From a virus: 64,000 nt of DNA. The notes beneath the pieces are model-generated. The model saw nothing but the letters and a program-made list of their open reading frames with translations. It was not told the DNA's origin and made no database searches. A program made the position numbers and the translations under genes. The stretch spans positions 1 through 64,000 of the IMG/VR virus record IMGVR_UViG_3300033512_000075. One strand, written 5' to 3'. Positions 19,673-54,592 of this stretch are shown here, in pieces; within the stretch, counting starts at the first letter, position 1, and each line of letters starts with the position of its first letter.

Positions 19673-20352
19673 TATTAAAGTACTATATAGATGAGATAAG
19701 ACTCACTCTAAAGTTAGATAATTCAGATGCTGAAATAGATGATAGGATAATAACACGCTGGCTTAACTCCCAGCGTGCTTTATTCATCAAGAATGAAGTA
19801 AATAAAGGAAACCCATTAACACATTCAGCATACCAAACCATCAATGGACTGCCACTAACACTTGTTAGTGGTAGGATGGTTCTAACTTATGATAGTAAAC
19901 AGTCTTATTTAACTACAGTAAGTAAGCTTCCACGTATAATGGAAGTGAAGGGAAGTCCATTAATAAGGTCTTTAAGATTACCTGAATTGGGTGGTAAGGA
20001 ATTGAATATTGAACTTCCAGAGAAGATAGAATACACCGGAAAAGGGGTGTTCAATAAGAATGAACTGTATGCAACCTATTATAAGGATAGAGTATATGTA
20101 AAGAATACAGAAGACTCCTTAGTGTCTACAAGTCTAAATGATATAACAATAGATGCTATATTTGAGAATCCGTTAGAGCTGATTAACTTCGTGGATAGCA
20201 ATGGTAATGCAGCCTATAATGTAGATAGAGACCATTACCCGATTAATGATACACTATGGGAGTATATATTGGGGGCTATTAGAAATAATAGGTATCTGTT
20301 ATTAAATCAAATAAAGGAAAACGAAGTAAATGACGACAGAGACAACACGTAG
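19669..20352 (+). CDS. Hypothetical tail-module protein (227 aa)
   Basis: Translationally coupled ORF. It contains degenerate copy E of the bipartite element at 20015-20043. Confidence 0.7.
   Translation: MILKYYIDEIRLTLKLDNSDAEIDDRIITRWLNSQRALFIKNEVNKGNPLTHSAYQTINGLPLTLVSGRMVLTYDSKQSYLTTVSKLPRIMEVKGSPLIRSLRLPELGGKELNIELPEKIEYTGKGVFNKNELYATYYKDRVYVKNTEDSLVSTSLNDITIDAIFENPLELINFVDSNGNAAYNVDRDHYPINDTLWEYILGAIRNNRYLLLNQIKENEVNDDRDNT
20015..20043 (-). repeat. Copy E (degenerate) of the bipartite element, in coding sequence
   Basis: The plus strand reads TTCCAGAGAAGATAGAATACACCGGAAAA. Confidence 0.4.
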
Positions 20353-20851
20353 TATAAAGATTACAACAACAATAAGAAGCTCCTTTGATGTAGATGACTG
20401 CTGGGACATATCTAATAAGGAACATACTAAAGACCTATTTAGAGATGTAATTAATAGTTACTTCAGAAATGTAGCAGACTACTTGATAGAAACAGGAGTA
20501 GATGTAAAGATGCAGTATAGATTAGGGCACTTTACATTAAGGAAAGAAAAAGTAGAGTTTATAATAAGAGATAATGGAGAGGTATTTACTAACTGCTATG
20601 TGAATAGAGAAGCTACAAAAGAGGTACAAAAGACAGACCCCTTTGCAAGACCTATCAGGTTAATGGATACAGAACATATATTAAGATTTAGTTGGAGGAA
20701 GGACGGATTTAGGAATATGAGTTCATATTACTTTAAGAAGTCCGGTGAGTTTTCTAAGAGGCTATTCGATAAAGCAATTAATAATGACTTAAGTAATTTC
20801 AATGAACTACGTAGAAATTTCTCGTATCTTAGAGAAGATAAACAGGGATAA
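20330..20851 (+). CDS. Hypothetical protein (173 aa)
   Basis: ATG start overlapping the upstream gene by 23 nt. Basic and aromatic-rich. Confidence 0.65.
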   Translation: MTTETTRSIKITTTIRSSFDVDDCWDISNKEHTKDLFRDVINSYFRNVADYLIETGVDVKMQYRLGHFTLRKEKVEFIIRDNGEVFTNCYVNREATKEVQKTDPFARPIRLMDTEHILRFSWRKDGFRNMSSYYFKKSGEFSKRLFDKAINNDLSNFNELRRNFSYLREDKQG

Positions 20852-21464
20852 GCCAGATACGTTTAAATATAATATAGCAGATGTTTACGAGTGGGTGTGG
20901 GAAGCTATATCTTTTATAGGTGCTGAAAAGGCATATGGAAGGACTACATTATCTATAGAATTAGATAATAATATGTGTATAGTTCCAAGTAATATATCTG
21001 ATGTAAGGACTATATATACTTATGAAGGAGAGGCTATGATCGAAACAAGGAATAGATTTGAGACTAATGTATTGAATGGGTATCAATATATACTGAATGG
21101 ACGGACACTAACAACTAACTACACCGGAAAAGCAGTCAATATAGAGGCATTTATATTTCCTACTGATGAAGATAATAAACCCTTAGTGCCTGACAATGTG
21201 TATGTAATAGAGGCTGTTGTATCATATGTTATATATAGATTAGCTAAGAGGGAATGGATAAAGAACAACGTTGCAGGACAAGTATACAAGGATTTAGAGC
21301 AGGGCTGGCTATTCCATGCAGAAGCAGCTAAGAACAAACTTGTAATGCCCACTGTGGACGAGATGAGGGAGCTTAATGAGCTACATGATATAAGTAGTGG
21401 AGTGAATAAAGTAATGAGGGGTAGAAATGTAGATGACTATAATCTTAACAGATATGTAGTATGA
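20802..21464 (+). CDS. Hypothetical protein (220 aa)
   Basis: ATG at 20802 is the only plausible in-frame start. It overlaps the upstream gene by 50 nt. Confidence 0.65.
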   Translation: MNYVEISRILEKINRDKPDTFKYNIADVYEWVWEAISFIGAEKAYGRTTLSIELDNNMCIVPSNISDVRTIYTYEGEAMIETRNRFETNVLNGYQYILNGRTLTTNYTGKAVNIEAFIFPTDEDNKPLVPDNVYVIEAVVSYVIYRLAKREWIKNNVAGQVYKDLEQGWLFHAEAAKNKLVMPTVDEMRELNELHDISSGVNKVMRGRNVDDYNLNRYVV

Positions 21465-21471
21465 GGTCGTA

Positions 21472-21500
21472 TTCGGTGATATTCATCTTTCTCTGGAAAT
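21472..21500 (+). promoter_or_regulatory. Copy A of the conserved bipartite element (TTCGGTGATA-TTCATCTTTCTCTGGAAAT)
   Basis: Fills nearly all of the 37-nt gap before the 1,388-aa gene (ATG at 21502). It shares an exact 19-mer, TTCATCTTTCTCTGGAAAT, with copies at 54573-54591 and (inverted) 54332-54350. Confidence 0.6.
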
Positions 21501-21501
21501 T

Positions 21502-24500
21502 ATGATTACAAAACAAAGGTTTATTAAGGGAATGGTAAGGGACAGTAATCCATTAGATTTGGACAACCAGTCCTATACGTATATGGAGAATGGAGATATA
21601 GTCAATAATGACGGAGAGTCTTTTGATGCTATATCAAATTTAAGAGGAAATAAAGAACTTCATATAGAGTTAGGAGGAGATGAGAGTCTATTCAAACATG
21701 TAAGTCCATTTGGGAGTGAGCATACTGAATGGAAGATAGTAGGTGCTGTAAATGTGAGAGATGATATAGTGTTATTTTATGCTAATAATGAAGGAACAGA
21801 ATCACGGATAGATTTACTTAAGTATGACACAGCTATAAATCATTTGGATAATAGATATTATAGAATACAACTGGTAGACTTGAATTTAGGATTTTCGCAA
21901 GATAAGATAATACATGCAATAGGTAACTATGAAGCCCCTGATAAGATAAAGGTCTATTTTGGAGAGAAGTTTGTAACTAATTCAGACATAAATACAATAA
22001 GGCAATTAAATATAGCACAAGATTTTACTGATGGTATAGGTGCTCCCGTATATGAACAGTCAAGTTATACAAGAGTTAATGGATTACTTGAGCAGGATTT
22101 AGAAATGATGGCTTTAAGCTATAATGCAGACTTAAGTAGATTGACATTTGATAGCGGTAATCTTAGAATAGGTAATGGAGTATTAAGGAACGGAACATAT
22201 CAGTATTCTTGTAGATATATAGATGATGTAGGAAGGAAGACAATGTGGAGTGAGTTGAGTCCTATAATAAGTATAACTGATAGTGTAAAGAATCAAACTA
22301 CAGGAACTGAAGGAGAAATGAATTCAGGTAAGTCTATAGAGTTTGATATAAGTATAGCATTCAACCATAATTATGATAATATAGAAATTGCTAGATTATG
22401 GAAGTCAAGTATAAATTCTACACCTGAAGTACTTATAATAGATAGAATTGGTATAAAAGGAGCTACTACAATAAGTGTTATTGATTCTTATTATGGAAGT
22501 ACATTCGGATTTGTAGATTATAATGAATTTAATATACAAGCCAACTTCTTTAAAGCTAAGACAATGGTTGTTAAAGATAATAGATTATTTATAGGTAATA
22601 TAGAAGAAGATTTCTTTGACACTGAATACGATGCTCGCATATACAGATTTAACTCAAGTAGAATAAGTGATATATATAAAGCTGATGGTACTACATTAGT
22701 GGAGTCTTTAAATGGAGCTTTAGTTAATTGGAAAGACACTGCTGAACTAATACCTATTGATTCAGATATACATAACAAGTTCAATGATATATCTTTAGAT
22801 ACTATAGGAACTAATGCATATAAGTATCAAGCTGATGGAACTACATTAGGTGCTCAAGGAGTAAATGTAAGTGTTTCATTTGATACCTCTTATGATTACA
22901 ATAATAACGATTTTAAGTTAGGCGTTATTAAGGGATTTATGTATGATGAGATATATAGTTTTGGTATTGTATTATTTGATAAGTATGGAAGGCAAAGTCC
23001 TGTAAAGTATATAGGAGATATAAGAATGCCTAAGTATCGTGATATATATCCATCATTTACATATAAAAGAGAGTACGATTTATGTGTCCCTTATTTTAAT
23101 GTAAGTAATCTTCCGGGTGAAGTAAATAACTATCAGATAGTTAGAGTAGAAAGAACTGTGAAAGATAGAACAATATTAACTCAAGGTGTATTAAGTAGTC
23201 TTGAAGATAAAGGTACTCATTTTCAACATGGTTGGTATGAACCTCAATCGCCTACATTTGAGTCTTCCGAACTATTCAGATTACATAGTCCTGAAATAAG
23301 TTTCTTTAAGGATTTGAATTTAAAAGATACTTATATAGAACAGTTAAATGATGTTAGTTATGATTATTTAGAATACGGGCATGATATAGATGCATTTGAT
23401 TCTGGAAGTGCTTGTTTCTATTACTCTGATTTAAAAGTAAGTGGCAGTGCATTATTTCCATTTAGAAATAAGATAAAGGACTTTGCAATAGCACAACAAA
23501 AGGATACTGTGTATGTAGATGGAAATACTATAGTTCCTATAGGAACAGGATTAGACACTCTTGGTGCTCCTGTTATATATTACAACAGTACTGCTTCTAT
23601 AATAGCACTTGATACTTCAATACTTGCAATAGGAAAGAGAACTCTAATTGTAAATATAAGAAGGTATATAATTCCATACGGCGCAGGTTCATATAATAAA
23701 AGATTGAATAGTGTATATGTTCCTGCAAGTATTGTATATACAGGAAATGGTACAGTAGGTTGTAGATATGGTGATACGTTTGTTAATAGATATAAGTACT
23801 TTCATGCAACTTGGATACATATACCAGAATTAGAGGCTGAATATCCGGGAGGTGTAATAGACCCTAATAACCCAGCATCACTTAAAATATACTCTGCTGC
23901 ACATATAATAGATACTATAGTAGAAAGTTCAATTAATTTGAAGTTAAGACATGATGATTTTTATTCAATAGGAAACTCCAATATAGATGCTATACAAGTA
24001 CAAGAGGAAGGACTTACCTTAACTGATAGCAGGGTATTAAAATTAGGTGATGGCAGAGAAACACAACATAATGCTATAGTAGATATATCTCCTACATACT
24101 TATATAATTCAGTATATAGTAGTATAAATAAAACTAAATTAGCAATACAGTTACCAGCCGACAGATTAAAGAATTATGTAGCAGATACTATGATAAGATA
24201 CAGTGAAAAGAAGATATCAGGAGAGTTATATGATAGTTGGTTAGATTTCAAAGCTAATAACTATAGTACATTAGATGCTAATTATGGCTCACTTAATTAC
24301 ATGGTTAGATTAAATGATAACGTATTTGTATTTCAAGATAATGCAGTAGTAGCACTTAGTATAAGTCCTACAGTACAAACAACAACAGATAGTGGACTAC
24401 CTGTAGTGCTTGGTAAGGGAGATATTATACATTCGCATCAGTATCTATCTACTAATGTAGGAATACAGAAGTGTAATGAAGCAGTAGTTAGTGTATCTTT

Positions 24501-25668: not shown

Positions 25669-28163
25669 GATTTAAAAAACAAGAAGTATATAATTTAAAG
25701 AAAGCTAAGTGGGGAGAGATATTAACTGCTGCAAGTGGTGTGGCAAGTATGGTACCGGGAGGACAGGTAATAGGTGCTGTAGGTGGAATTGCTGGTATGG
25801 GATTAAGTGCTTGGGAAGCTAATAATGAGAGATTGAAAGAAGAGCAGAGAATGAAACAAGAGCAGTTACAGCAATCAGCACAAGGTAGACTACAGACCAA
25901 TCTACAAAACTACGATTTAAATATACCTACATTTGCTTATGGTGGACAAATGCCACCTCAACAAGTAAGACAACAACAAGTTACACCAATAGCAGGAAAT
26001 ACACATGAACAGGGAGGTACTAATTTAGCTAATGTAGTTGAGGCAGAGCAAGGAGAAGCTAAACAAGGTAATGTAATATATAGTGATAGGCTTAAGATAG
26101 AAAAGAAGGATTTAGATAGGTATCAATTACCTAAGAAGTATTTAGGAAAGACTATTGCAGATATTGCAAAAGATATAGAATCGCAGTTCAGTCTTAGGAA
26201 GTTGGATAGTTTAGATAATAAAGAGAAGCAAAGACGATTAGATGACTTGACACAGATACAAGAAGTAAAGAAAGTAGAACAAGAGAATAAGACATATAAT
26301 AACGACTTGAAGCAAGGCAGAGTAGAGATTACACCTGAAATGATGCAAGATATGCAAGGAATACAACAACAAGATATGATGGGACAACAGGCACAAATGC
26401 AACAACAAGTGACTCCTGAAGTGCAACAACAAATGATGATGCAACAACAAGGAGGACAGATACCTATGATGATGTATGGTGGCAGACTGCCTAAGGCTGC
26501 ATTTGGACGTACTATACCACCTGAAATAAATGATAAATATAAACAGAGTGCAGAAGAATATTATAGACAAGGAGGAATAGCAGATTATCCTGTAATGGGT
26601 AATTATAGTCCTCAAGATGAAGCATATAATGCAAGTTTAAGACCTATAAGTCAATTAGTAGATACTCCTTATGGTAAAGAAGCTGCATCGAGTAGAAGGT
26701 TTCCTTTATTTAGTAAAAAGATAGATGAAAGCAACCTAAATAATATAGCACCTTCATTTACATCTACTTCTAATTTTGTAGTTAATGATTATGGAACATC
26801 TATTAATCCACCCGGTGTTATAGATACGGGTTCGGGTTCAGGAGACCCAAGAATAGACACTACTGATATAACAAAAGGATATACGCCAAGAACTGATAAC
26901 ACGAGTAATAATAACATACAATCGAATAATACTGTGAGTTCAGGTAATCCTCTAATATATGAGTATGGAGTAAGTAAAGACCCTATGGAGTTTAGAAAGT
27001 CTTATGATAAAGGTATTAATTTAAATACAAATTCCAGAGAAAATAGAACAAGTACCGGAAATACAAATTCTAGTAATGTATTAACAAGTAGTAATGTAGC
27101 AGACTTAAATGCAACACAAGATTTAAGTTTCTTATCTCAAAGATCAAATAGTAATATAAACACAAGTAATAAAACTAATCCATCAGCAAATGTAGGTACT
27201 GTATCTATATCACCTGCAAATACAAGTAATGGAATATCAAATAATATAGGTACGACACAATCAGGTACAAATCCACTACAAAGCAAAGACTGGTATAATA
27301 ATGGATATGGAAGACAGAAAGCAGAAGCAAATAGCAATAAGGGAGTACTACCAAGCGATTATATAACTAAACGTGAAATTAATCAAGGAGGCGGTTCAGG
27401 AAATCCTATGGTAGATAATAGTGGCTTATTTACAGGAATACAAGGGGCTGAAGGAAATAGTAATTATACAATGCCTGTATTTGATAGTACTGGTGCTAAT
27501 ATAGCCAACAAGGCAGCTTATACATCAGCAGACAATACAGGTGATCCCAACATGGGCACGGAGTTCAATTTTAACTACGAACAACCCAATGCCTTCTTAT
27601 CTAATTTAGGTGGTATGTATGATATAGCAAGAGGTATACATGGATTACTTAAACCACAAAAGAAGTTCTCAAGAATCAAGCCTGATTATGTAAGAGCTTC
27701 CTATGTAGACCCACAAAGAGCCCTTCAAGATGTATCTAATTCATATGGAAGTGCCGCTAATGTGGTAAGAAATAACAGTATAGGAGGAGGTAATTATATG
27801 TCTAATATGCTTGCATTGAAAGGGCAGGAAGGACAAGACAGAGCAAGAACAAATCAGGCTTATGATGAAGCCAATGTAGGAATAGCTAACCAGTATAAAG
27901 GAGTAAATGCACAGATGAATGTAGGTACACAACAAGCCAACTCACAAATACAACAGTATGAAGAGATGGTAAATCAACAAGAGAGAGATGTTGCATCTAA
28001 TATGATACAAGGAGGACTTACAGATATGTCTGGACATTATTTACAGAGACAAGGAGACCAGAATCAGTATAATATGCAAACGGCTACACTTCCTTTCTTA
28101 TCACAGAACAATATAAAGGTATACCAAGACAAAGGTAAATGGTATTATAAATATCAAAAGTAA
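25665..28163 (+). CDS. Low-complexity virion protein (832 aa), putative ejected/internal protein
   Basis: N-terminal glycine-zipper-like hydrophobic stretch 'AASGVASMVPGGQVIGAVGGIAGMGLSAW'. Two 'YGG[QR][ML]P' motifs and 'GNTHEQGG'. Q/M-rich and N/S/T-rich tracts. ATGA overlap with the upstream gene. Confidence 0.5.
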   Translation: MRFKKQEVYNLKKAKWGEILTAASGVASMVPGGQVIGAVGGIAGMGLSAWEANNERLKEEQRMKQEQLQQSAQGRLQTNLQNYDLNIPTFAYGGQMPPQQVRQQQVTPIAGNTHEQGGTNLANVVEAEQGEAKQGNVIYSDRLKIEKKDLDRYQLPKKYLGKTIADIAKDIESQFSLRKLDSLDNKEKQRRLDDLTQIQEVKKVEQENKTYNNDLKQGRVEITPEMMQDMQGIQQQDMMGQQAQMQQQVTPEVQQQMMMQQQGGQIPMMMYGGRLPKAAFGRTIPPEINDKYKQSAEEYYRQGGIADYPVMGNYSPQDEAYNASLRPISQLVDTPYGKEAASSRRFPLFSKKIDESNLNNIAPSFTSTSNFVVNDYGTSINPPGVIDTGSGSGDPRIDTTDITKGYTPRTDNTSNNNIQSNNTVSSGNPLIYEYGVSKDPMEFRKSYDKGINLNTNSRENRTSTGNTNSSNVLTSSNVADLNATQDLSFLSQRSNSNINTSNKTNPSANVGTVSISPANTSNGISNNIGTTQSGTNPLQSKDWYNNGYGRQKAEANSNKGVLPSDYITKREINQGGGSGNPMVDNSGLFTGIQGAEGNSNYTMPVFDSTGANIANKAAYTSADNTGDPNMGTEFNFNYEQPNAFLSNLGGMYDIARGIHGLLKPQKKFSRIKPDYVRASYVDPQRALQDVSNSYGSAANVVRNNSIGGGNYMSNMLALKGQEGQDRARTNQAYDEANVGIANQYKGVNAQMNVGTQQANSQIQQYEEMVNQQERDVASNMIQGGLTDMSGHYLQRQGDQNQYNMQTATLPFLSQNNIKVYQDKGKWYYKYQK
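27032..27062 (-). repeat. Copy F (degenerate) of the bipartite element, in coding sequence
   Basis: The plus strand reads TTCCAGAGAAAATAGAACAAGTACCGGAAAT. Confidence 0.4.
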
Positions 28164-28307: not shown

Positions 28308-28344
28308 ATGCAGTTACATAGTATTTAATTAAACATATAACATA

Positions 28345-30741
28345 ATGGCAAGGTATTTTCAACGTGAAAGAAGTTTACCACAAAGCACATATGCACCTAT
28401 TAATTTGGGTGCTGTTAATCAATTTCTGACAGAGAAGCAGAAAGGAGTAGACCAGTTAATGGGAGCAGCTGATGAAATAAAAGACCAACAGTTAGAGTAC
28501 GAAGCAATCAAACAGTATGAGGGATTAGGGCAAGATGCTAAAGACTATGCAGTAGTTAAAGGAGCTGCAGATGAATGGTATGCAGAAAAGGAAAAGGCGC
28601 TTAATTTCTTGACTAATGATTTGAATTTAGATAATTTAGGGGATGCTACAAGAAGTATAGCTAAATTAAAGAATAAGAAATATAATATGGAATCAGGTAT
28701 ATTTAAAGTGGCAAGTGAGAATTTGCAATTATATAATAAAGCAAAGAACGATTTGATGCAGAATGCAAGAACAGAAGGTATAGGTGATTATGAGCAATCT
28801 GTTTTATTGAGAGAGTTAGAACAGCAGTATGTTAATAAAGGTGAATTGAAAGGAAATAGTGGAGATTTTAATACATTTGGTTCTTATAATCCATATGCTT
28901 TTACTAATACAGGTAAGTTTGTAATGGATGTAGGTAAGACAGAGATAGATAAAGAAGGAATTACTAAGATATATCAAACTACTATAGGAGGTGCTCCTTA
29001 TATAAGAAAAGATCATTCAACTACAGAAGAAAGAAGCCCTGAAGAAATAGCTCTTATAGGATTTACTTCTATGACAGGTAATAGAAAAGAAAACGCTTCC
29101 TTAGAGTCTCAAATAGAAATAAAAGGAAAAGCAATATTTGATAAGACTTACTATGATTTAATTAAATCAGGTGTGAATAAAGACGAAGCAAGAATAGAAG
29201 CTAATAAGAAAAGACAAGAAGTAGTTGATTTTGAGAATGAAGCGAGAAATCCTGAAAACTACGGAGCTATTACAAAAGAAGGTTTTTCTTTTGATAATTT
29301 AAGTAAAGATGGATTTAATAACAAGTATGCAGGTACTATATATGGTAATGCTTTAAATCAAAGTATTATACATAATGCAGTTAAAAAAACTGATTTAGAT
29401 TCTACTATACAGGAAAAATTGAATTGGAATTACGCAGGTGGTGGAGGAGAATATGAAAAGAAATCTCCGGGAACCGCTATATTCCATACAGATGAAAATA
29501 AGAAAGACATAACAGAACAAAACAAAAGCTACTCTCAAAACGCAGATAAGATAACACAACTAAAAGCACAAATAGCAGCTAATCCTAACGACTTGAATGC
29601 TAAGAGTGAGTTAATGAAAGTAGAAGAAGCCCAAAACTCATTATCTTATAATTTGAATGGTAGATATACAACTAAGGATGGAAAGAACCTTATAAATGAA
29701 ACAGAGAATATATTAGCTAAACAGATGCAGGAAGCATTTAAAAATAAAACAATGTCTAACGAAGACATAAAAAAATACAACACAGCAATAAATAAAGTAG
29801 AAGATTATGTACTAAGATATGGACCAGAAGAAGGATTAAATAAGGTACAAGAAGAAATAGATAATATAGATAAAGTGTTGGGAGACACAGAAGGATTCTT
29901 CTCTACTGTAGGAACTTTAGTTAATCCTATATTAGGTGTTGCTGGAACAGTAATAAACAGTTGGTCAGATGTTACAAATAGTGAAGCTTCAGATAATGTA
30001 TTGAATGATATGAAGAAACAACTAAAGGCTGCAGAATTAGATGTTAGCGGATATACTACAGGAATGGTTATGTATGGAAATAGCGAGAAGAGTCAAGCAA
30101 AACAAGTACAGGATTATATGAAAGAAGGATTAAAACAAAACGCTATTACTGATATGGCTGGTAATAAGATAGAAACTAAGGAAACAGATGAATTAGTGTT
30201 TGCTGCTGCTACAGGAAGTAATACACACGGAGTATTAATACAAAGGTATAAGGATGAAGAGGGAAAGGACGTAGTGAAGGAAACACAAGTAATGATTGAT
30301 ATGAGTGAAGAACAAGGAAGAAGATTTAAAACCATGCAAGGAACAGACGCCATGCAAGATTTCATAGAAGATACACACAACACTTCTGTCGGCTCTTTAA
30401 CTAATGCTGATATAAATGATATGGCAAGTAAAGGGTCTGTATTTGCAATGGAGGGAAGTTATACTAATGGAGAAAAATTAGCAGTAGCAGACAAAGGAAC
30501 TAAATTAGTACTAAAGGGAGTTAATCCGGCATTTGGTACTTTTGAAGTAGAGGCTTTAGGAAATCAAAAATTTAAAGTAAAAGATGGCACAGGCAACGGA
30601 TACATAAAAGATAGATATAAGAAAGCTGACGGTACTATAGAAGAGTTTGATAAAGAGTTTAATTTATTCGATATAGGCGAACTAACCACATTAAGAAATA
30701 AGAAGTACATGGATGAAGTAAAACAAAATAAAAACGAATAA
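28345..30741 (+). CDS. Hypothetical virion/cargo protein (798 aa)
   Basis: First gene after the internal terminator. K/E-rich with no recognisable motif. Confidence 0.6.
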   Translation: MARYFQRERSLPQSTYAPINLGAVNQFLTEKQKGVDQLMGAADEIKDQQLEYEAIKQYEGLGQDAKDYAVVKGAADEWYAEKEKALNFLTNDLNLDNLGDATRSIAKLKNKKYNMESGIFKVASENLQLYNKAKNDLMQNARTEGIGDYEQSVLLRELEQQYVNKGELKGNSGDFNTFGSYNPYAFTNTGKFVMDVGKTEIDKEGITKIYQTTIGGAPYIRKDHSTTEERSPEEIALIGFTSMTGNRKENASLESQIEIKGKAIFDKTYYDLIKSGVNKDEARIEANKKRQEVVDFENEARNPENYGAITKEGFSFDNLSKDGFNNKYAGTIYGNALNQSIIHNAVKKTDLDSTIQEKLNWNYAGGGGEYEKKSPGTAIFHTDENKKDITEQNKSYSQNADKITQLKAQIAANPNDLNAKSELMKVEEAQNSLSYNLNGRYTTKDGKNLINETENILAKQMQEAFKNKTMSNEDIKKYNTAINKVEDYVLRYGPEEGLNKVQEEIDNIDKVLGDTEGFFSTVGTLVNPILGVAGTVINSWSDVTNSEASDNVLNDMKKQLKAAELDVSGYTTGMVMYGNSEKSQAKQVQDYMKEGLKQNAITDMAGNKIETKETDELVFAAATGSNTHGVLIQRYKDEEGKDVVKETQVMIDMSEEQGRRFKTMQGTDAMQDFIEDTHNTSVGSLTNADINDMASKGSVFAMEGSYTNGEKLAVADKGTKLVLKGVNPAFGTFEVEALGNQKFKVKDGTGNGYIKDRYKKADGTIEEFDKEFNLFDIGELTTLRNKKYMDEVKQNKNE

Positions 30742-30742
30742 C

Positions 30743-33700
30743 ATGCCAAGAGATATAGATTATAATAAATTCGGATTTGACCCAGCTGAATTAGGACAGA
30801 AGACAGCAGAGAGAGTAGAGAAACAAAGAATGGAGACATTAAATAAGGACTTTGATAGAATGAACATAAGTCCTGAAGATGGAGCATCTTTACTCAATTA
30901 TGAGCAATCAAAAGCAAAAGATACAGGACTTGTATTAGAAGGAGTTGATATAAGTGGATTTGAGGGATTGGTTAATACAGATGATTTTAGTATAAGTACA
31001 TTTGATAATAGTAAATTAAATGACTTAGCAGCCGAAAGACAAACAACCTCACAGAAGTTATTAAGAACTGCAGCCAATACATTAGGTAATGTACCTATAG
31101 GTATAATAGGAGATATAGGAGGTACAGCCGCCATCTTTGAAGATGACTTATCTAATTCATTAACAAGATGGGCAGAAGAGAATAGAGATTGGGCTGCAGG
31201 TAAAGTATATACTAAGACAGGAGATACGGATTGGTATGGTAATATAGGAGGAGGCTTATCAAGTGCTATTCAATTTGGTATAGAGGGTGCTTTATTTGGT
31301 GCTATGTTTGGACAAACAGGTGCAGTAGTAGGTAAGTTACCTAAGTTATTAGCAACTACTGCTAAATTACAGAAAGCAACTAAGTTAGCTACAGTATTAG
31401 AGAAGTATGGATTAGCTTCAAGGAATGCAGCAGAAACAGCACTTGAGTTAAGTTCATTTAGTAAGAATGTATTAGCAGGTACTACAAAGGCATTTGAAAC
31501 TACTATACCAAGACTTGCTACTGCAACACATCTTAGCTTACTTGAGGGCAGGTTAAGTGGTGTTACTGTATATGATGATTTTATGAGAGATAACCTACAG
31601 GCATATATAAATAAGTACGAAGAACAAGATGGAACTAAAAAGGCACAAGAGGCTGCATCACAGGCAGGTAATACTACTATGTATATAAGTGCCTTAAAGA
31701 ATATACCATTAAATATAACAGGCACAGCAGCTGCATTTAAGAATGTGAATAAAGAAGTAGTTGAGAGATTTGGATTGAATGAATTAGCTAAGAAGGGAGG
31801 ATTTGCAGAGGGATTAAAGACTATAAAGCAAAGTAGAGACTATAAGAATTACATAAGAGATAACTACGGGTATAGAGCATTAGGGGAACCACTTCAAGAG
31901 GGACTTGAAGAAACCAATACAGGAATGGCTGAAGTATCTGGTAGAAGATTAGGGGAATCACTTGCAGGAGAAGATTTAAGAGGAGAAGAGAATAAGTTCT
32001 CTTATATAGATGAAATGACTAACTTCGGCGAATCACTTGAGAGGATAGGAACTAAAGAGGGAGCTATTGAGTTCGGTATGGGAGCTGTTATGGGTGCAGT
32101 TACTACAGGAGTAATGGATATCATGCCAAGAAGAGTAACCGAGAATGGAGAATCTAAGTTAGAGTGGTATGGTAGAATAAAGAGTGATAGAAAAGAAAGA
32201 GAAGATAGATTTGACTTAGTAGGTGAGACTATGGTAAAGGACTTAGAGAGGATAGATAGTCTTAATGATGAGTTGATTGAAGTAACTGCAGATGAACAAG
32301 CGGGTATTAAAGTAGAAGGACAAAGAAGCAAACAAGATGTAGAGAATGACTTATTTAATATAACAAGCTTTAATGCAGTTTCATTAGGTATTACAGACCA
32401 CTTAGTACAAGAGTATAAAGATATAGCAAACCAAGACAATAAAGACGTAAACAAAGTAGCTAATAAAAGACAAGAGGAATTCAATGCACTTAATAAGGAG
32501 AGTGCTAAATTAGATGAAGCAATCAAGACTACAGAACAGGACTTCAATATGGCTAATGAGCAACAGAAAGAACAAATACAAGGACAATTAGAAGAACTAA
32601 CAAAAAGAAAAGAAGTAATAGAGAAAGATAAAGTAACATTAAAGGCTGAAATAGCTAAAGTAGCAGGTAAGACAGAAGCTCAAGTTAATGGATATGCTAA
32701 AGATAAAGACGATAATAGATATAAGCAATTAGCTGAAAGACAGATAGATAAGTTGAATGAAGCTAAGGCAGCCTATAAAGACTATGAATTCAAGTACGGT
32801 AATACTGCTGCAAACAAATATGGTATAGTTAATAGATTACTTGAGTTGAGATTGGGCAGTATGACTACTCAAGAGAATATAGAGAATAGTATAGAAGAGT
32901 TCAATAAAGACTTAACATATAAAAGCCCTAAAGATAAAGGCAGTTTAGTTGAATATGAGATGGATAGTATGTTAGGTAATTATGTTAGAGTTAAGAAAGA
33001 AATAGAAGCTCTGCTTGAATTACAAGCTAAGGAGAAAGATAAGGGAATATCTGATGTAATGACTAAAGAGATTAATAGTAGAAAAGATAAGTTATCTGAT
33101 TTAAGACAGCAAATTACTGTAAAGGAAGTTAGTGCAGGAGTTAAAGTTAATATGTTTGAAGAGAAATATAAACAAGAAGAAAAGATATTGAAGAAGAGAT
33201 TAGATGCATTAGAAGGAGATAAACTTAAAGTACTGAAAGGAAGAGAAGAGGAAATCAGTAAAACAAATAAAAAGATAAAAGAAGTAACTGATGAACTCAA
33301 TAAATTCAGTACAGGCTTAACAGAAAATAAGTTAAATAGTAAAGCATCAAAAGAAGCCCTTTTATCTTACGAAATCAGATTGACTGCACTTAGACTTCAA
33401 GCAGAGAAAGAGCGGAGAGAATTAGAAAGAACGAGAAAAGAAATAGCTGGTATAGGCTCTAATGTAAGTCTCTATGAAATGAAATCAAGGTCTTTAACAG
33501 ATAAAGAAAAACAATTAAAAGAAGATACAATACAACTCGAAGAAGATAAAGATAAAACAAGAGAAGTAATAGATAAGATTAAAAAAGAAATAAGTACTTA
33601 TGATATTAATACACCAACAGATAAATTAAAGATAGAGGAGCTGAATGAAAGTCTGTTTTTATATGAAGAGAAGTCTAAGTTCTTAAGGACACAGAAAGAA

Positions 33701-50000: not shown

Positions 50001-53000
50001 AGTGAATTTGAAGTACTGCATAAAAAAGTTAGTGGAGATGATTGGAAAAATGTTACACAACAAGAAATAGAAAGACATGAATATTTATCTAATTTAATAA
50101 ATAAAGTAGGTATTCAACCAACTCAAACTAATGAAAATTTAAAAGAGAATATTGAAAGTGTTAAAGGAAGAATAAGTGATTTAGTTAATACAGAAGAAGG
50201 AATAATTGATTTACAAGAAGAATATTTATCTCAGGCAATAGAAAATTTAAAAAGTCTTAAAAACGCTAAAATTTTATTTAATGATAGTTCTGTAAATGAG
50301 GAAAATGTTTCTGCTAATAAATGGTTTATTCAATCAGAGAATAATTATCCTTCAATAGGACTTGATACAAAAAAAGAAGCTGAAGAATACCTAAAAAATG
50401 AACTAACTGATGCTGAAAATTTTCTTAATAAAATAAAAACTAAATCTAAAAAAGAATATAATAAGCAAGCATTAATTAACACTAAATTAGCAGCATTAAA
50501 GGAAGTAGCTAAAAAATACCCAAGAAGTTTAATTAGAAGCGAAGTTAAGCAATCACTAGTAAAGAATACCAGTACACAGAATTACCTATTTGAAGATGAT
50601 GAATTACCATTTCAAAGAATACAATCAGAAACACAAGAAGACTTCCAGTCAGTAGAACCTACAATAAACTTGGATATAGTATCAGACGAAGAGTACCAAA
50701 TCCTTAAAGAGGGTATAACAACCACTGCAAATGAAATATACGACAATAGAATAAAAGCATTAAAGAACACAATAGCAAAGCACCCTGATAAACAAGAGAA
50801 GTATAATGCCCGTATTCAAGAATTACAGGAAGCCCAAGAGAAGCTAAAGGAAGATACTGTATTAAATGAGATACTTACAAGCGTTGAAGGTCTATTAAGT
50901 AGTGCTAAATCAGACTTAACTAATGACCAAACAGCCACAGGAGTAATGAACACATTACAACAGTTAGCTTCCATGAATGTAATATTAGAGATGTATGCAA
51001 ATGAAGATAGAATAAACAACCAAGTACTTAAAGACAAGGCATCAGATTTAATATCAGAAATGATGAGATTGTCTAATGTAGCCAATGCACTTGTTCCTAA
51101 AGTAATGAAAGGAATAGCAGACAGATATAATATAGATGTATCAATAGAAGACTTAAAGATAATACCAGAAGAGAAGACCATGAATGCTATATTTAGAGGT
51201 ATTGAGAATATGTCATCTAAATTAGTAGCCACTATAAGTAAAGCACTTGATTTAGCAGAACGTCTTAAGAACAATAACCTAAATAAGAACTTCATAGTTC
51301 CATTCAATAAGATATTAAAGGACTTAAAAGATGCTAAAGTAGATATAAACTCACAGGAAGTTATAGATAGTCTTATGCAAGAAGACAAGGACGGAAACCA
51401 AACAAAGAACTACATAAATGAATACAGTGATAAGTTCTGGTCAGAGAGAAGAGATGTAAGATTCAATTTAGGTGCAATATCTAAATATAAAAAGAAAGGA
51501 CAAACCAACATAGTATCAAATCTATCAAAAAAGATACGTGAGTATTATGATAGAATGGTATATGTTAATCCTGCCTACTTCTATGAAGATACAACAGAAG
51601 AAGATAAACAAGAGATATATAATAAGATAGTAAATGAGATAGGTATAGAAAAAGCAGATAAGTTGATAGCTGAAGCAGATAAGAAGTATGCTACATATCT
51701 AACAAGAAAGAATGATGCGGAATTACGTATTGTAGCAGAAACTAACAGTGAACAAGAACAAGACTTTAAAATAGGTAAATGGATTGAATACAATAGTCCT
51801 GAAAACTTCATGAGACAGTTGAACTCAAATCTATCTATAGAAACCACTAATGGAAGCAATTGGCTTGTAGTTGCACCGAAGAAACAAATTAATGGAAAGA
51901 ATACAGGACTATATGATACTAAGTATGAGAAGCTATATAAGAATAAAGAAAAGAATAAAGCCCTTATAGCTTTCTTTGAATTCACTAATGAGTCTTTAAA
52001 TAAATATAAGAAGTACTTCCCGCATTACATATCAGATGAGTTAAATGCTAACTTTCTACCAGAAGTATTTCAAGACTTACAGACTACAGGACTTACAAGT
52101 AAAATAGAGAAGATAAAAAGAGCTGCAATAGAATCTGTTTCAGAGACAAGAGAAGGTTATGCTGGATATGATATAAGAGACCATACAGGAAAGAAGATAG
52201 GTACTATACCAACCCCTTACACTAAAGATACTCTTACAGGACTCAAGAAGAAGATAAGTACAATAGAAAAGAGAATGAAGAACTTAGAACTTGAGATACT
52301 TGAGATATTAGAAATAACCCCTACTGTAGATGATTACTTCAGAGAAGGTAATATGAAGATGGTAGCAGACAAGAAAGAAAAGCTCAAAGAAGATAAAGAA
52401 GAAATAACAAAACTAAAAGAAAGATACAATACATCATTCAAGTATAAGTCTACAGACTTAGTTAAGACTACAAGACTATTTGCAGAATCAGCAGAGAACT
52501 ACAAGGCAAAGGCACAAGTAGAGGATATAGTGTTATTAGGTAAGACAGCCCTACAGAATGCAAGAGAGCTTGAATTAAATGATGGAGGTAAACCAGTTAA
52601 ACTTGGAGAGAATAGACTCGCTTCATTTAAGAATGGATTACAGATAACACAGAAAGCAGTAGACCATGCAATAGAGAGCATACTATATGAAAATAGAAGA
52701 GATAGAGAAATGAAATCAAATGTAGTAGTTACCTCAACACCTGCAGGAAAACAGACTATAAAAGAACATAATGTATTAAATAAAGAACTTAAAGATAAAC
52801 TAAGTAAAGGAGAAATAACTAAAGACGAGTTCAATGTAAAGATAGCAGACTTAAACGAGAAGTTAATGGAAGAAGCTTCTGTTAGAAAGGTATCAGGTAA
52901 TAAGATAATGGATTTGCTACAGAAATTTACATATATATCATCATTAGGCTGGAATCCGTATTCAGCTATATCTAACTTGATATCAGGTAGATTAGTAAAT

Positions 53001-54140
53001 TCTTTAGAAGCTTCATCTGGTCAGTTCTTTAGTCAGAAAGACTTGATGTTTGCAACTAATAAGATAAAGTACTCATTCATAAAGAGCTTAACAGGAAGAG
53101 AAACAGAAGAATCCAAGAAAATAAAAGCACTTATAGATAAGTATGGTATCTTATTCAATCTACTTGAAACAGACTACGGTAATAATGGTACACTATCATT
53201 CCTTAATAAGAAAGAGAGCCTACTTAATCCTATGGAGATGCAGAAGAGAGGGGAGTATATAAATCAAGGAACTACATTCCTATCAATGATGAACGCTACA
53301 AAGATAACAGACTTGAATGGAAAGGAATATACACTATGGGAAGCATATGATACAGACGGTAAATTAAAACCTAACTTCGATGCAACAGAGTGGGAGAATG
53401 AACTTACAATAGATACTATAAATGGATATACTAAATTCAGAGATAAAGTAATTAAATTAAATAAGAAGCTACACGGTAACTATGCAAGTCCTGTACTGTA
53501 TAAGAAGTATGCGATAGGTAGAGCAGTAGGTACATTCAGGAGTTGGTTGCCTGAAGCCATTGCATCAAGATTTGAACCTGAAAGAGATGATAGTGATTTA
53601 GGAACTAAGGTAAAGGGAAGATATAGAAGCTATGCTAAGTTATATGAAGAAAAGAACTTCATAGGTGCTTTAAGGACTACTATGTCTATGTTAGTTAAAT
53701 CTACATTAAGAATGAAAGTAGATAAGAATGGACTTAATGATGTAGACTATTATAATATGAAAAGAAACATAAGGGAAATACAGTGGGGGATAGGTATGAT
53801 GTTAGCCTATTATGGTCTTTCATTGATACTCAATGCCTTTGGAGATGAAGATGATGAAGAGAAGTTTGGTATAATTACTACAATGAATATGCTTAATAGA
53901 GCTCAAGGTGATATATCATTATACCTTAATCCAACAGAAGCTAAGAGAATGATAGATAATCCATTCCCTATGATAAATTCATTATATAAAGTATATAAGA
54001 TAATACCAAAGATGTTTGAGACTGCAAGTAATGATGATAAGAATCACGATATAATGGACTTTGGAAAGTATGCACTATCGGCATTACCCGGTACTAATGT
54101 ATTGACTAAGACTTACAATATGGGTACAATGGAATATTAA
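47031..54140 (+). CDS. Giant polyvalent protein (2,369 aa) with an N-terminal ART-like module and a C-terminal membrane segment
   Basis: Uninterrupted ORF. The ART-PolyVal-like motifs are given in the sub-feature. Hydrophobic helix 'IQWGIGMMLAYYGLSLILNAF' lies near the C-terminus (about nt 53778-53845). Confidence 0.6.
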   Translation: MAFCPQVSDPNVVVAFNNIVTMFDGTPLKVEEFKSLDLRKERTGADKEAMDIAYNVWDITKGENLPETIKEAVDLILNNTAQETNTSNSKEQIEANRNKETDSELSRNENGEVLAPNGNVSKLYKDIEQLEEVTTKQQAEQLYKQTRSKEFKDWFGDSKVVDENGEPLIVYHGSPFKFNYFKKENIGKNTLKEIEGFYFSFSKEYSKGYYNMDLVGDNYIFEDIIMRNPDTYGYYMNLSSNGYFNIKTREFTVSDNTLLDDILNNEKLIYEISNVIRKYNKDYNFYNSSIDIFELSSISFNNELIDTKEKKKLIIDEIKNNVINFFEMADKKLKDKGVPNYNPTVYPVFLSLVDPIEIDIAIGDITSKQKLNLNNNDGLITKEELLVKEPNQIKSVLNQGTFSTTENNIYYQNNTTQSTEDYIASEKTIRDLAARMSDRIGIPIRFESDRTKKYKGKLENNTAHINLAYATLDTPIHEILGHSIIRAIKDKELYNNLLKELETGKGKEVLDRIKRDYQYKQSNIESGNWEYGMYRIQTSSTAHQYFDTLKEAEENIEKYSPKYTLEEQQEEAIVELLGMMTAEKLDVIKDGKLISLLKRLLKEIKSFVKDLLKQKEIEIDKLPDNMTLGDLSDLLAYSNSKLILPGYEVEYTTPDNMKFKTYSEANNHISKLVKSVKDVDLSGAKLNIINQNTISSINEIKVNSFSGTDIDDIPFYAERRNGIWYLSYTKIDLENDFYNNQENVTTNVSVIRYYNLTLNYNNINQFIEKNKEYEQSKEIIDEWKRINNIVYNPEEVYSRGQGFYSVVGAYSSFDVNLMFQNLLTHLEDHKKVGGEFVISAFTKPIDKNIGHLEGGGGKIKFKIFPQSNDIKWAANRDVFSGSVWDASEKINKDKKSEILGVSYTKAPSMTHINSDAIVPNLADVIDKLAYQHNELGIQLTGNNFRLEYDEDIPYQTKKLLGSLNNILEKKFGKLIEPEISKKQNINKDIISEFEVLHKKVSGDDWKNVTQQEIERHEYLSNLINKVGIQPTQTNENLKENIESVKGRISDLVNTEEGIIDLQEEYLSQAIENLKSLKNAKILFNDSSVNEENVSANKWFIQSENNYPSIGLDTKKEAEEYLKNELTDAENFLNKIKTKSKKEYNKQALINTKLAALKEVAKKYPRSLIRSEVKQSLVKNTSTQNYLFEDDELPFQRIQSETQEDFQSVEPTINLDIVSDEEYQILKEGITTTANEIYDNRIKALKNTIAKHPDKQEKYNARIQELQEAQEKLKEDTVLNEILTSVEGLLSSAKSDLTNDQTATGVMNTLQQLASMNVILEMYANEDRINNQVLKDKASDLISEMMRLSNVANALVPKVMKGIADRYNIDVSIEDLKIIPEEKTMNAIFRGIENMSSKLVATISKALDLAERLKNNNLNKNFIVPFNKILKDLKDAKVDINSQEVIDSLMQEDKDGNQTKNYINEYSDKFWSERRDVRFNLGAISKYKKKGQTNIVSNLSKKIREYYDRMVYVNPAYFYEDTTEEDKQEIYNKIVNEIGIEKADKLIAEADKKYATYLTRKNDAELRIVAETNSEQEQDFKIGKWIEYNSPENFMRQLNSNLSIETTNGSNWLVVAPKKQINGKNTGLYDTKYEKLYKNKEKNKALIAFFEFTNESLNKYKKYFPHYISDELNANFLPEVFQDLQTTGLTSKIEKIKRAAIESVSETREGYAGYDIRDHTGKKIGTIPTPYTKDTLTGLKKKISTIEKRMKNLELEILEILEITPTVDDYFREGNMKMVADKKEKLKEDKEEITKLKERYNTSFKYKSTDLVKTTRLFAESAENYKAKAQVEDIVLLGKTALQNARELELNDGGKPVKLGENRLASFKNGLQITQKAVDHAIESILYENRRDREMKSNVVVTSTPAGKQTIKEHNVLNKELKDKLSKGEITKDEFNVKIADLNEKLMEEASVRKVSGNKIMDLLQKFTYISSLGWNPYSAISNLISGRLVNSLEASSGQFFSQKDLMFATNKIKYSFIKSLTGRETEESKKIKALIDKYGILFNLLETDYGNNGTLSFLNKKESLLNPMEMQKRGEYINQGTTFLSMMNATKITDLNGKEYTLWEAYDTDGKLKPNFDATEWENELTIDTINGYTKFRDKVIKLNKKLHGNYASPVLYKKYAIGRAVGTFRSWLPEAIASRFEPERDDSDLGTKVKGRYRSYAKLYEEKNFIGALRTTMSMLVKSTLRMKVDKNGLNDVDYYNMKRNIREIQWGIGMMLAYYGLSLILNAFGDEDDEEKFGIITTMNMLNRAQGDISLYLNPTEAKRMIDNPFPMINSLYKVYKIIPKMFETASNDDKNHDIMDFGKYALSALPGTNVLTKTYNMGTMEY
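47478..48260 (+). other. ART-PolyVal-like ADP-ribosyltransferase module (candidate)
   Basis: 'EFKDWFGDSKVVDENGEPLIVYHGSPF', 'GFYFSFSKEYSKGYY' and 'KEELLVKEPNQIKSVLNQGTF' give an H / Y-S / E arrangement. I recognise it from memory of polyvalent-protein ART domains. Confidence 0.5.
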
Positions 54141-54163
54141 AATCTAATTTAAAGAAAAAAAGA

Positions 54164-54216
54164 ACCTACAACCGAAGCTAATAGCTTTTTTAGGGTTGTA
54201 GGTATCTTTATTTTTT
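54164..54216. terminator. Bidirectional intrinsic terminator 1
   Basis: ACCTACAACC (54164-54173) pairs with GGTTGTAGGT (54194-54203). An A-run lies upstream (54151-54162) and a T-rich run downstream (54207-54216). It starts 24 nt after the stop of the 2,369-aa gene. Confidence 0.75.
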
Positions 54217-54331
54217 GATATTTGACTTGTAATATGTAAAAAGAATTTGAGCTTAATGTAGGGCTTTTTTAATCTTTACATACTGTAATATATAATAACA
54301 CATATACTTATTCTCTGTTAGTTAAATACTA

Positions 54332-54369
54332 ATTTCCAGAGAAAGATGAAGTAACAAATTCACCGAAAA
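54332..54369 (-). promoter_or_regulatory. Copy C of the bipartite element (inverted relative to copies A and B)
   Basis: The plus strand reads ATTTCCAGAGAAAGATGAAGTAACAAATTCACCGAAAA. Its reverse complement contains TTTTCGGTGAAT and CTTCATCTTTCTCTGGAAAT. Confidence 0.6.
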
Positions 54370-54380
54370 TAAAAAAAAGA

Positions 54381-54434
54381 AGCCAATAACACCCTATAAA
54401 ATAGCTTTTATAAGGTCGTTGTTGGCTTTTTTTT
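54381..54434. terminator. Bidirectional intrinsic terminator 2
   Basis: An approximately 21-bp imperfect stem: AGCCAATAACACCCTATAAAA / TTTTATAAGGTCGTTGTTGGCT, with loop TAGC. An A-run precedes it (54366-54380) and a T-run follows (54427-54434). Confidence 0.75.
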
Positions 54435-54562
54435 GTTTAAAGTGGATTGTAATATAAAACAGAAAAATGGAAGCTATTGGAAAGCTTTTTATTGAGTTAA
54501 ATACTATTCCGTAAATTTTAATTAAATACATATCTTTACTTAGTTACTTTACCTATATTTAA

Positions 54563-54591
54563 TTTTCGGTGCTTCATCTTTCTCTGGAAAT
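54563..54591 (+). promoter_or_regulatory. Copy B of the bipartite element (TTTTCGGTG-C-TTCATCTTTCTCTGGAAAT)
   Basis: Ends 2 nt before the stop codon (54593-54595) of the last minus-strand gene. Divergently oriented to copy C. Confidence 0.6.
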
Positions 54592-54592
54592 C

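Follow-up and report, generated by a model that had tools for sequence, protein, structure and literature searches.

A two-part nucleic-acid element of a crAss-like phage with a reversed copy at the start of the muzzle gene

Copies of the element and their surroundings

The window, by which we mean the whole 64,000-nt stretch of DNA analysed here, comes from an uncultured crAss-like phage and contains six exact copies of TTCCAGAGAA, at 20015(+), 21498(-), 27032(+), 43835(+), 54334(+) and 54589(-), each within an element of 30-40 bases. These are the places at which the original prediction had put six copies, and all six strings that it quoted are reproduced. Copy E (20015..20043, plus strand) lies in sense inside the Ring_2 gene (19669-20352), in the codons for L-P-E-K-I-E-Y-T-G-K. 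The A-site (21465..21501, plus strand) takes up all 37 nt that separate the stop codon of Ring_1 from the ATG (21502..21504, plus strand) of the gene for the 1388-aa muzzle protein (crAss_MUZ, here MUZ), in agreement with the placement first given. On the mRNA strand the A-site reads GGUCGUAUUCGGUGAUAUUCAUCUUUCUCUGGAAAUU, the reverse complement of the motif, and the MUZ leader is C/U-rich, whereas the leaders of neighbouring genes are A/U-rich. Its motif-sense reading, copy A' on the minus strand, is 30 nt long and thus spans 21500-21471, not 21500-21472 as previously numbered. That this copy is reverse-complemented and covers a translation start went unremarked at the time. Copy F (27032..27062, plus strand) is in sense in the gene for the CARG1 cargo protein (832 aa), within a non-conserved linker rich in S, N and T (about aa 456-466), and copy D (43835..43866, plus strand) is in sense in a charged low-complexity linker of a 3451-aa ORF, an inter-domain position that bears out the domain junction proposed for it.

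The two remaining copies lie where the gene blocks converge. The plus-strand block is closed by T1 (54159..54216, plus strand), a terminator-like hairpin followed by a U-run, and beyond it stands T2 (54371..54434), a bidirectional terminator-like hairpin composed of an A-run, a 17-20-bp stem and a T-run and bracketed by copies C and B'. Copy C (54332..54369, plus strand) is non-coding and sits between T1 and T2; it had been described as directly following the last plus-strand gene, but it is 190 nt past the stop codon of that gene, beyond T1 and 2 nt before T2. Copy B' (54563..54591, minus strand) does abut a stop codon, beginning 1 nt past that of the last minus-strand gene (54593-54991), which places it within the 3' UTR of the minus-strand operon; in this position, 128 nt upstream of T2, it must by all appearances be transcribed as 3' UTR. 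C and B' form an inverted repeat, with arms of 20 perfectly matched nt plus the 8-nt second box flanking 260 bp. An intrinsic terminator within the motif was considered and rejected, T1 and T2 being separate hairpins adjacent to it. We found no tRNA or tmRNA, no match to Rfam 15 in the whole window, and only hairpin-like matches far under the gathering threshold in a sensitive Rfam scan of 54100-54650. The neighbouring small proteins, examined as candidate regulators, gave no informative domain, and no DNA-binding protein was identified among them.

The 10-mer TTCCAGAGAA is observed six times versus 0.15 expected from dinucleotide shuffles. Its rarity had been argued from base composition, by which measure it is far less exceptional: 110 other strand-specific 10-mers with at least three G/C occur at least five times in the window, because the coding strand is purine-rich, and the count by itself is unremarkable. 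What is exceptional is the two-box layout, the identity of the non-coding copies and the conservation. The pattern TTCCAGAGAA-N6-20-ACCGRAA has five matches versus none expected, with 8-17 nt between the boxes; the downstream box had been assigned to all six copies and holds for five, copy A' having ACCGAAT instead. Alone among the frequent 10-mers, TTCCAGAGAA has a common G+C-rich 5-mer downstream (CACCG in 5 of 6 copies; at most 3 of 5 for the others). The three non-coding copies (A, B' and C) are exactly identical over 19-21 nt, of which a shared 19-mer had been noticed, and box 1 (TCCAGAGAA) is almost unchanging across all nine copies known from the window and a relative, L010. Searching with a profile made from every known copy recovers these six and no others in the window, at 13-26 bits, with the next best at 8.8 bits, and no copies in the 7.9 kb past the right end of the window; the sequence covered begins after the left 15.8 kb of the genome. 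The bipartite co-occurrence, together with the orthologous conservation described below, leads us to reject a chance origin.

Five of the six copies are in mRNA sense and A is reversed, a bias that is not significant alone and could stem from the purine-rich coding strand. The sense copies are rich in purines and unstructured; folding of the motif copies yields about 0 to -4 kcal/mol and shows no U-run, and no uniform intramolecular fold was found across them. The second box lies in or beside a hairpin loop at E, D and F, with a clear hairpin only at E (20029..20052, plus strand; GAAUACACC[GGAAAA]GGGGUGUUC, the second box in or beside the loop) and at D, where a 7-bp hairpin holds the second box in its loop; B' lacks a hairpin, and C and A' show only trivial ones. 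Across the window and L010 copies, the offset of CCG relative to box 1 covers a continuous range of 17-29 nt, which speaks against a rigid DNA-binding protein or a promoter. The peptides encoded by the three coding copies are unrelated to one another, and a protein-level repeat was rejected on this ground. The statement that D, E and F lie in different reading frames needs qualification, since box 1 is read in the same frame in D and F (TCC AGA GAA, S-R-E) and differently in E (CCA GAG AA, P-E-K), while the second boxes do differ in frame.

Conservation in a relative and among strains

The relative L010 encodes a muzzle protein that is 46-49% identical to that of the window, and it has no BLAST-detectable nucleotide similarity to the window: synonymous sites are saturated and the other intergenic gap is not alignable. 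L010 nevertheless retains the element at two sites orthologous to those of the window, one immediately ahead of the MUZ start codon and one within Ring_2, so that the conservation at orthologous positions that had been proposed as a check is found at both. Its copy of A ends 2 nt ahead of the MUZ ATG, the N-terminal peptide of MUZ being conserved, and its copy of E is at the identical codon offset (346). In all, L010 carries a reversed copy before MUZ and two sense copies, E and a further one, G. The coding copies F, D and the G copy of L010 are all in non-conserved linkers, which are places where a nucleic-acid signal is tolerated. This conservation is seen in one independent relative, and the comparison covers all but 19 kb of the L010 contig, the part in which its convergent region would lie.

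Codon choice inside copy E points in the same direction. A rare NCC codon is present in both genomes in only 1 of 169 aligned Ser/Thr codon pairs, and this pair is in E (ACC versus TCC), where the codon is kept rare despite the differing amino acid. Among 108 glycine pairs only two are GGG/GGG, one of them in E, and by our own estimate from empirical pair frequencies the joint chance of the rare-codon pairs of E is ~1.6e-5. At these codons a relative that lacks the motif has the common AGT and GGT. Since A and E are held at orthologous positions and E keeps its rare codons, purifying selection is required, and the comparison of the two genomes indicates, as originally proposed, that the element is conserved as nucleic acid and not as protein. 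The E hairpin is also stable beyond expectation (z = -3.5 both for the 24-nt hairpin of the window and for the 58-nt region of L010), and its counterpart in L010 shows two double (compensatory) stem changes in a pair-by-pair reading of two sequences only. Copies within one genome agree past the core, with AGATGAA in the window and AGATATA in L010, and this agreement could reflect gene conversion instead of selection for pairing.

In more distant crAss-like loci (L011-L014 and L158) the element is absent. In relatives without the motif the Ring_1 stop and MUZ start codons overlap, and the convergent gap of relatives is just 46-66 nt, with one terminator. Among the sampled strains every copy is present with identical boxes, no copy shows a presence/absence difference, and the only variation in any copy is in the spacer of C (54348, 54351 and 54358). 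Divergence patches between strains neither start nor stop at any copy, contrary to the suggestion that the element is a junction used in module shuffling. We found no close relatives among GenBank phages, the best MUZ matches being only 25-28% identical, nor in a protein-pattern search of IMG/VR and a JGI/ENA metagenome collection. DNA-pattern scans of viral, metagenome and genome collections gave one match per returned locus, which we judge to be chance; the viral and metagenome loci contained no MUZ or Ring homologue by tblastn, and the two bacterial-genome matches resembled ordinary chromosomal sequence.

Complementarity to the muzzle start and its possible explanations

With a reversed copy occupying the whole 37 nt ahead of the MUZ ATG, the MUZ initiation region is complementary to all other copies. 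Among 34 translation-initiation regions, only that of MUZ finds a perfect 21-nt complement among the sense transcripts (the runner-up reaches 16 nt and the median is 11), and this is copy C, which exactly matches the complement of the A-site over 21 nt. The predicted duplexes with the A-site are strong for all partners (C -41.5, B' -41.2, D -34, E -32 to -34 and F -26 kcal/mol) relative to a background of -12.4 +/- 3.7 kcal/mol. The B' duplex (a 20+7-bp match) pairs all three bases of the AUG, and the 21-nt match of C ends at its first base. For the A-site of L010, the top partners include its own copies G (-30.3 kcal/mol) and E (-27 kcal/mol). Cognate and non-cognate duplexes give a mixed picture, in that the E copy of L010 pairs slightly better with the A-site of the window, a comparison that involves one relative only. 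E and A stand 1.45 kb apart in the window and again in L010, where their positions are orthologous, and we infer from the gap-free gene order that E and A are on the same transcript.

The presence of a reversed copy on the MUZ start site leads us to take RNA-RNA pairing as the most likely form of regulation, and we tentatively propose, at less than even confidence, that the element controls MUZ translation in this way. We infer both that these RNAs encounter and pair with one another and which way the effect would go. The pyrimidine-rich A-site, which takes up the whole MUZ leader to the AUG, would be the target, and the partners would be E (in the same late mRNA, 1.45 kb upstream), F and D (in the linkers of cargo genes), B' (in the opposing 3' UTR) and C (by the terminator). 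Pairing of the A-site with any of these may occlude the MUZ initiation region or create a processing site in double-stranded RNA, so that MUZ synthesis would hinge on whether the partner of the A-site is engaged. Ribosomes translating Ring_2 across E, for example, could free the A-site, as in the coat-replicase interaction of MS2, and the B' and C RNAs could repress in trans, as does the c4 antisense RNA of P1/P7 with its two-box pairing. The variable offset between the boxes would be taken up as bulges in such a duplex, but it is hard to reconcile with a rigid protein. Against the model, we know of no regulatory design with a single target and five partners. A more elaborate form, which we consider improbable, is a hub-and-spoke network in which the MUZ leader is titrated by the copies in the cargo-gene linkers and the opposing 3' UTR. 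If such a network exists, it would couple MUZ translation to the abundance and translation state of several late and early transcripts, a control by competing-RNA stoichiometry that is not described for phages.

An unlikely alternative, though the one among the rivals that we take most seriously, is a double-stranded DNA site for a sequence-specific protein of phage or host (a regulator, an architectural or partition-type protein, or a transcription roadblock), for which orientation would be irrelevant and the copy in the MUZ leader one more site in a scarce intergenic gap. Such a site could account for six dispersed copies that include intragenic ones under codon-level selection, as is the case for some chromosomal protein sites, for two inverted copies bracketing a bidirectional terminator where gene blocks converge, and for the near-invariance of box 1 in the nine known copies. 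However, the box offset varies continuously from 17 to 29 bp and exceeds one helical turn, the sequence is not palindromic, the 19-21-nt exact identity of the non-coding copies is stricter than protein sites typically require, no copy is at a plausible promoter and the neighbouring genes yielded no DNA-binding protein. An IHF-type site in particular, which had been suggested, finds no match to WATCAANNNNTTR, with at most 5 of 9 specified positions agreeing (both strands of the six copies, direct reading). Still less probable, in our view, is a protein-bound element in RNA resembling a nut site, with a linear box, a variable gap and a small hairpin showing CCG(G)AAAA, that would act on sense transcripts through antitermination, stabilisation or processing. 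The sense orientation of five of the six copies, the second box in or beside a hairpin loop at E, D and F, and the E hairpin, which is significantly stable in both lineages (z ~ -3.5) and keeps its rare-codon C-G pairs, are all compatible with it, and the hairpin holding part of the motif could equally be a protein-recognition feature. But B' has no hairpin and C and A' have trivial ones, C and B' stand at operon ends right before a terminator, which is not where antitermination would be sited, we know of no candidate N-like protein, and the conserved copy A is antisense and thus left unexplained.

The element may also have no regulatory role at all and be a selfish or duplicative short repeat (a miniature mobile element, a gene-conversion family or a recombination scar), with C and B' as the terminal inverted repeats of a 260-bp insertion carrying T2 and the other copies as solo ends. 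The C/B' arms around 260 bp, the short, single-terminator convergent gap of relatives, the permissive linkers that hold the coding copies, and the greater likeness of copies within a genome than of orthologous copies between genomes would fit such an origin. We nevertheless hold it to be improbable: there are no target-site duplications and no transposase, the sampled strains show no presence/absence difference of any copy, only a single repeat-flanked unit exists where several full-length copies would be expected, the viral, metagenome and genome collections yielded nothing beyond single-copy matches judged to be chance, and A and E are orthologous across a deep divergence with the rare codons of E maintained, which points to purifying selection. 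Least probable of all, and very much so, is the idea originally put forward, that the element serves the phage virion RNA polymerase, or another polymerase, as a promoter, terminator or pause signal. C and B' are indeed sense-oriented at the 3' ends of both converging blocks. Antisense readings excepted, however, no copy precedes a gene in the orientation required, the spacing between the boxes drifts, the motif has neither a hairpin nor a U-run, and terminators at the internal sense positions of E, F and D would cut essential late genes short. Scans with Sigma-70 and Bacteroidota sigma-A promoter consensus sequences placed no site on the copies, five of which have no gene in reach downstream. 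In the only crAss-like phage studied, the middle and late genes are transcribed by the host RNA polymerase from -35/-10-like promoters, and the virion-polymerase transcripts have no shared upstream motif (bioRxiv 10.1101/2020.03.07.982082).

Significance and comparison with known systems

Crassvirales are among the most abundant phages of the gut and the environment, and to our knowledge almost nothing is known of their post-transcriptional gene regulation. Purifying selection acts clearly on this short nucleic-acid signal, to the point of bending codon choice within a structural gene, and the single reversed copy covers the translation start of a major tail protein. If the pairing model is true, it would be the first post-transcriptional control circuit proposed in a crAss-like phage and would offer a mutationally testable handle on how the ratios of virion components are set; if it is wrong, the element is still a defined candidate binding site with which to find its factor. 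The reach of these conclusions is limited because the element is found only in one sparsely sampled lineage.

Similar to the nut sites of lambda (boxA and boxB), the element can be read as a two-part sense RNA signal in which a linear box is followed by a small hairpin with an A-rich loop; unlike nut, the hairpin is inconsistent among copies, the copies are in mid-operon or at operon ends and not promoter-proximal, and one conserved copy is antisense. As with the T4-type promoter-stem-loop cassettes and the boundary sequences of lambdoid phages, we see short repeats dispersed at gene boundaries, but the mosaic boundaries of strains miss the copies, half of which are intragenic, and there is no promoter or stem-loop. 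Closer to the proposed pairing are the bacterial small RNAs that derive from 3' UTRs or terminator-proximal positions and block ribosome binding: B' is in a 3' UTR, C is 2 nt before a terminator, both seeds are unstructured and the predicted pairing reaches the AUG of the target. The 21-28-bp duplex far exceeds the usual seeds of such RNAs, however, and no processing site, promoter, chaperone or Rfam family was identified here.

In the immI operon of phages P1 and P7, the c4 antisense RNA acts on icd/ant through two separate short boxes, which pair with a site further along the same transcript that covers a translation start. It is a processed, structured and defined RNA of 77 nt with its boxes in loops, one regulator for one target. 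The element shares with c4 a bipartite complementarity, with unpaired sequence between the parts, over a translation start, the pairing here being predicted. It differs from c4 in having five potential partners, three of them inside coding sequence, in showing no sign of processing and no sequence similarity, and in that the gene controlled would be a structural and not an immunity gene. In the long-distance coat-replicase interaction of MS2 (the Min Jou sequence), an initiation region is complementary to a site ~1.4 kb upstream inside another gene. MS2 has an RNA genome and a single pair, whereas here the phage has double-stranded DNA, there are extra copies downstream and on the opposite operon, and the pairing is a prediction. 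The E/A pair nonetheless has the same geometry, 1.45 kb with an upstream translated gene, and is conserved in L010; similar to MS2, the downstream start could become accessible when the upstream gene is translated.

Anatomy and genomic setting of the element

All six copies of TTCCAGAGAA, the first box of the element, were confirmed at the positions originally predicted: E (20015-20043), F (27032-27062), D (43835-43866) and C (54332-54369) on the plus strand, and A' and B' (54591-54563) on the minus strand. The copy strings were also reproduced, save that A' was off by one base and correctly spans 21500-21471. Five of the six match TTCCAGAGAA-N6-20-ACCGRAA, where none is expected, and the second box of the sixth reads ACCGAAT. 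The rarity claimed for the 10-mer by itself was overstated, because, on a coding strand rich in purines, another 110 10-mers that contain G/C turn up at least five times; a dinucleotide-shuffle control likewise exaggerates it. TTCCAGAGAA is the sole frequent 10-mer with a common G+C-rich downstream word (CACCG in 5/6 copies; all others at most 3/5). An exact 19-21 nt is common to A', B' and C, and a profile from all copies separates them cleanly (13-26 bits) from everything else (8.8 bits or less). The finding is real and, judged from the sequences compared, stands on firmer ground than the original prediction could give it, being backed by conservation and by the codon evidence.

The consensus is (A/T)TTCCAGAGAAAGAT(G/A)AA..., then 0-10 extra nt and CACCG(G)AAAA, and it is non-palindromic. 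Across the nine copies in the window and in L010, a related JGI contig, the distances from box 1 to CCG are 17, 20, 20, 21, 21, 22, 23, 25 and 29 nt. The purine-rich strand is the mRNA sense in five window copies. F, D and G (the third L010 copy) lie within non-conserved linkers, and B' begins 1 base past a stop codon. The motif RNA has no structure of its own except for a local hairpin at E, which is significant and present in both lineages. Strain variation within copies amounts to three substitutions, all in the C spacer, with both boxes intact. Short antisense stretches upstream of box 1, UUCUCUG for C and UCUGG for the L010 E copy, could pair with the box and so mask it in potential local hairpins (within 54311-54343 and L010 2270-2284, respectively).

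The window belongs to an uncultured crAss-like phage. Its plus-strand block (up to 54140) holds the genes for capsid, ring, muzzle (MUZ) and giant cargo proteins, and its minus-strand block (54593 onward) those for ribonucleotide reductase and further enzymes of nucleotide metabolism; a near-identical ENA strain shows a dUTPase and a primase-like gene just past the right edge of the window. Within 36660-54140, the 3451-aa ORF carries a PIF1/UvrD-type helicase domain at its C-terminal end (aa 2955-3416), and the 2369-aa ORF includes an ART-PolyVal domain. Roughly one third of the latter ORF, presumably the core of the virion RNA polymerase, is 50-57% identical in the best matches among the 200 homologues found. 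Strains in four assemblies (one ENA, one Logan, two JGI) are 99.2-99.9% identical to the window. At 29449-30996, which takes in the C-terminal portion of a 798-aa protein (its counterpart in the other strains has 781 aa) together with ~250 nt at the start of a 1965-aa ORF, the window has no detectable similarity to the ENA and Logan strains, elsewhere 99.9% identical, and this looks like an exchanged module of host-range or tail-fibre type. Other strain differences cluster tightly (e.g. 5 mismatches in 13 nt) at 21008-21093, 23682-23733, 26421-26885, 27824-27908, 29367-29442 and 31004-31016, with kilobases of identity between them, which suggests frequent short-patch import from diverged relatives.

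In the convergent intergenic region (54141-54592), C sits between two strong terminator hairpins (54159-54216 and 54371-54434), and C and B' flank the second, which is bidirectional. The region is 452 nt long, as against 46-66 nt in three more distant crAss-like loci (L011, L013 and L158), and the 12-nt sequence AGTTAAATACTA recurs exactly within it as a direct repeat (54320 and 54495). It may encode one or more small non-coding RNAs; intergenic regions of phi14:2 are reported to be highly transcribed.

Conservation in a distinct relative

L010 is the closest distinct genome available; its MUZ is 46-49% identical and it has no BLAST nucleotide similarity to the window, while MUZ in GenBank phages reaches 25-28% identity at most. 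It carries three copies. One, on the minus strand, ends 2 nt short of the MUZ ATG (CAT-AG-TTCCAGAGAAAGATATACCG) and is orthologous to A'; the other intergenic gap common to the window and L010 shows no alignment whatever. Another falls at codon offset 346 of Ring_2, the exact position of E, and G is found in a low-complexity linker within a giant ORF.

The peptide at E is similar in the two genomes (PEK[IV]xY[TS]GxG), with Thr as ACC in the window and Ser as TCC in L010, codons that account for 5% of Thr and 4% of Ser codons among plus-strand genes of the window. Of the 169 aligned Ser/Thr positions, NCC takes 6.5% in the window and 5.3% in L010; both genomes have it at only one of them, the one in E. 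The next glycine is GGG in both, a pairing seen at 2/108 positions, and the joint chance of the motif codons is estimated from empirical pair frequencies at ~1.6e-5. AGT and GGT stand there in a more distant relative that lacks the motif. Read from these frequencies, codon choice at E shows selection on the DNA. The element is absent from the more distant crAss-like loci, in two of which (L011, L012) the stop codon of Ring_1 and the start codon of MUZ overlap, and it is therefore limited to one lineage, thinly sampled in its known distribution. Pattern scans of viral, metagenome and genome collections returned single-copy matches only, judged to be chance.

Complementarity to the MUZ leader and alternative readings

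One reversed copy occupies the entire 37-nt gap (21465-21501) up to the MUZ AUG, and the MUZ leader is therefore complementary to every other copy. Predicted duplexes with the leader reach -41.5 (C), -41.2 (B'), -34 (D), -32 to -34 (E) and -26 kcal/mol (F) against a background of -12.4 +/- 3.7 kcal/mol, and those of B' and C extend to the AUG. When 34 translation-initiation regions were compared for perfect complements in sense transcripts, only MUZ had a long one (21 nt, with 16 for the runner-up and a median of 11). The pair kept in L010 is E and A, 1.45 kb apart and presumably on a single late mRNA. Comparison of cognate and non-cognate duplexes in the window and L010 gave a mixed outcome.

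The gene callers of the ENA and Logan strains begin MUZ at Met11 (1378 aa). The Logan DNA is identical to the window across 21502-21534, and the real start is probably ATG 21502, since L010 conserves residues 1-10; gene callers may be misled by the atypical C/U-rich leader. In early Ring_1 of L010 (3121-3170), a G-U-rich stretch is the second-best partner of the L010 leader (-29.7 kcal/mol), with no counterpart seen in the window. A 16-nt perfect complement of the major capsid gene's initiation region (5257-5298, start 5294), TTTAAATTAGATAAAG, lies at 37137-37152 in the 3451-aa ORF; being A/T-rich, with roughly 0.2 expected over all genes, it may well be chance.

Because of the leader complementarity, its uniqueness, the variability of the spacers and the conservation of the E/A pair, we tentatively favour RNA-RNA pairing that would control MUZ translation or processing. 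A double-stranded DNA site for a protein would account for dispersed, conserved, orientation-independent copies and for the bracketing of a terminator by C and B', but variable spacing is hard for a rigid DNA-binding protein and 19-21-nt identity fits poorly, so that we regard it as a less probable reading. That the element is a selfish repeat is rather improbable: the inverted C and B' repeats do enclose a lineage-specific 260-bp insert, but the idea fails on target duplications and strain polymorphism, and purifying selection is seen at E and A. We also give little credence to an RNA-protein element of nut-like layout, for which the E and D hairpins speak, but which accommodates neither B' nor the antisense copy. 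The originally proposed promoter, terminator or pause signal for the phage polymerase is very unlikely, contradicted by copy placement, by the absence of structure and by what is known of phi14:2 (bioRxiv 10.1101/2020.03.07.982082), and a promoter would hardly accommodate the variable box spacing; the suggestion of a module junction likewise found no support.

Under RNA-RNA pairing, E could pair in cis with the reversed copy before MUZ, RNAs carrying B' and C might pair with it in trans, and the variable spacers would form bulges within the duplex. The element may provisionally be classed as a phage cis- or antisense-regulatory repeat. We know of no precedent for a scheme in which five partners share a single target. 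The proposed cis pair of E and A resembles the long-distance interaction of MS2, and the proposed trans action of B' and C resembles the P1 c4 antisense RNA and 3'-UTR small RNAs.
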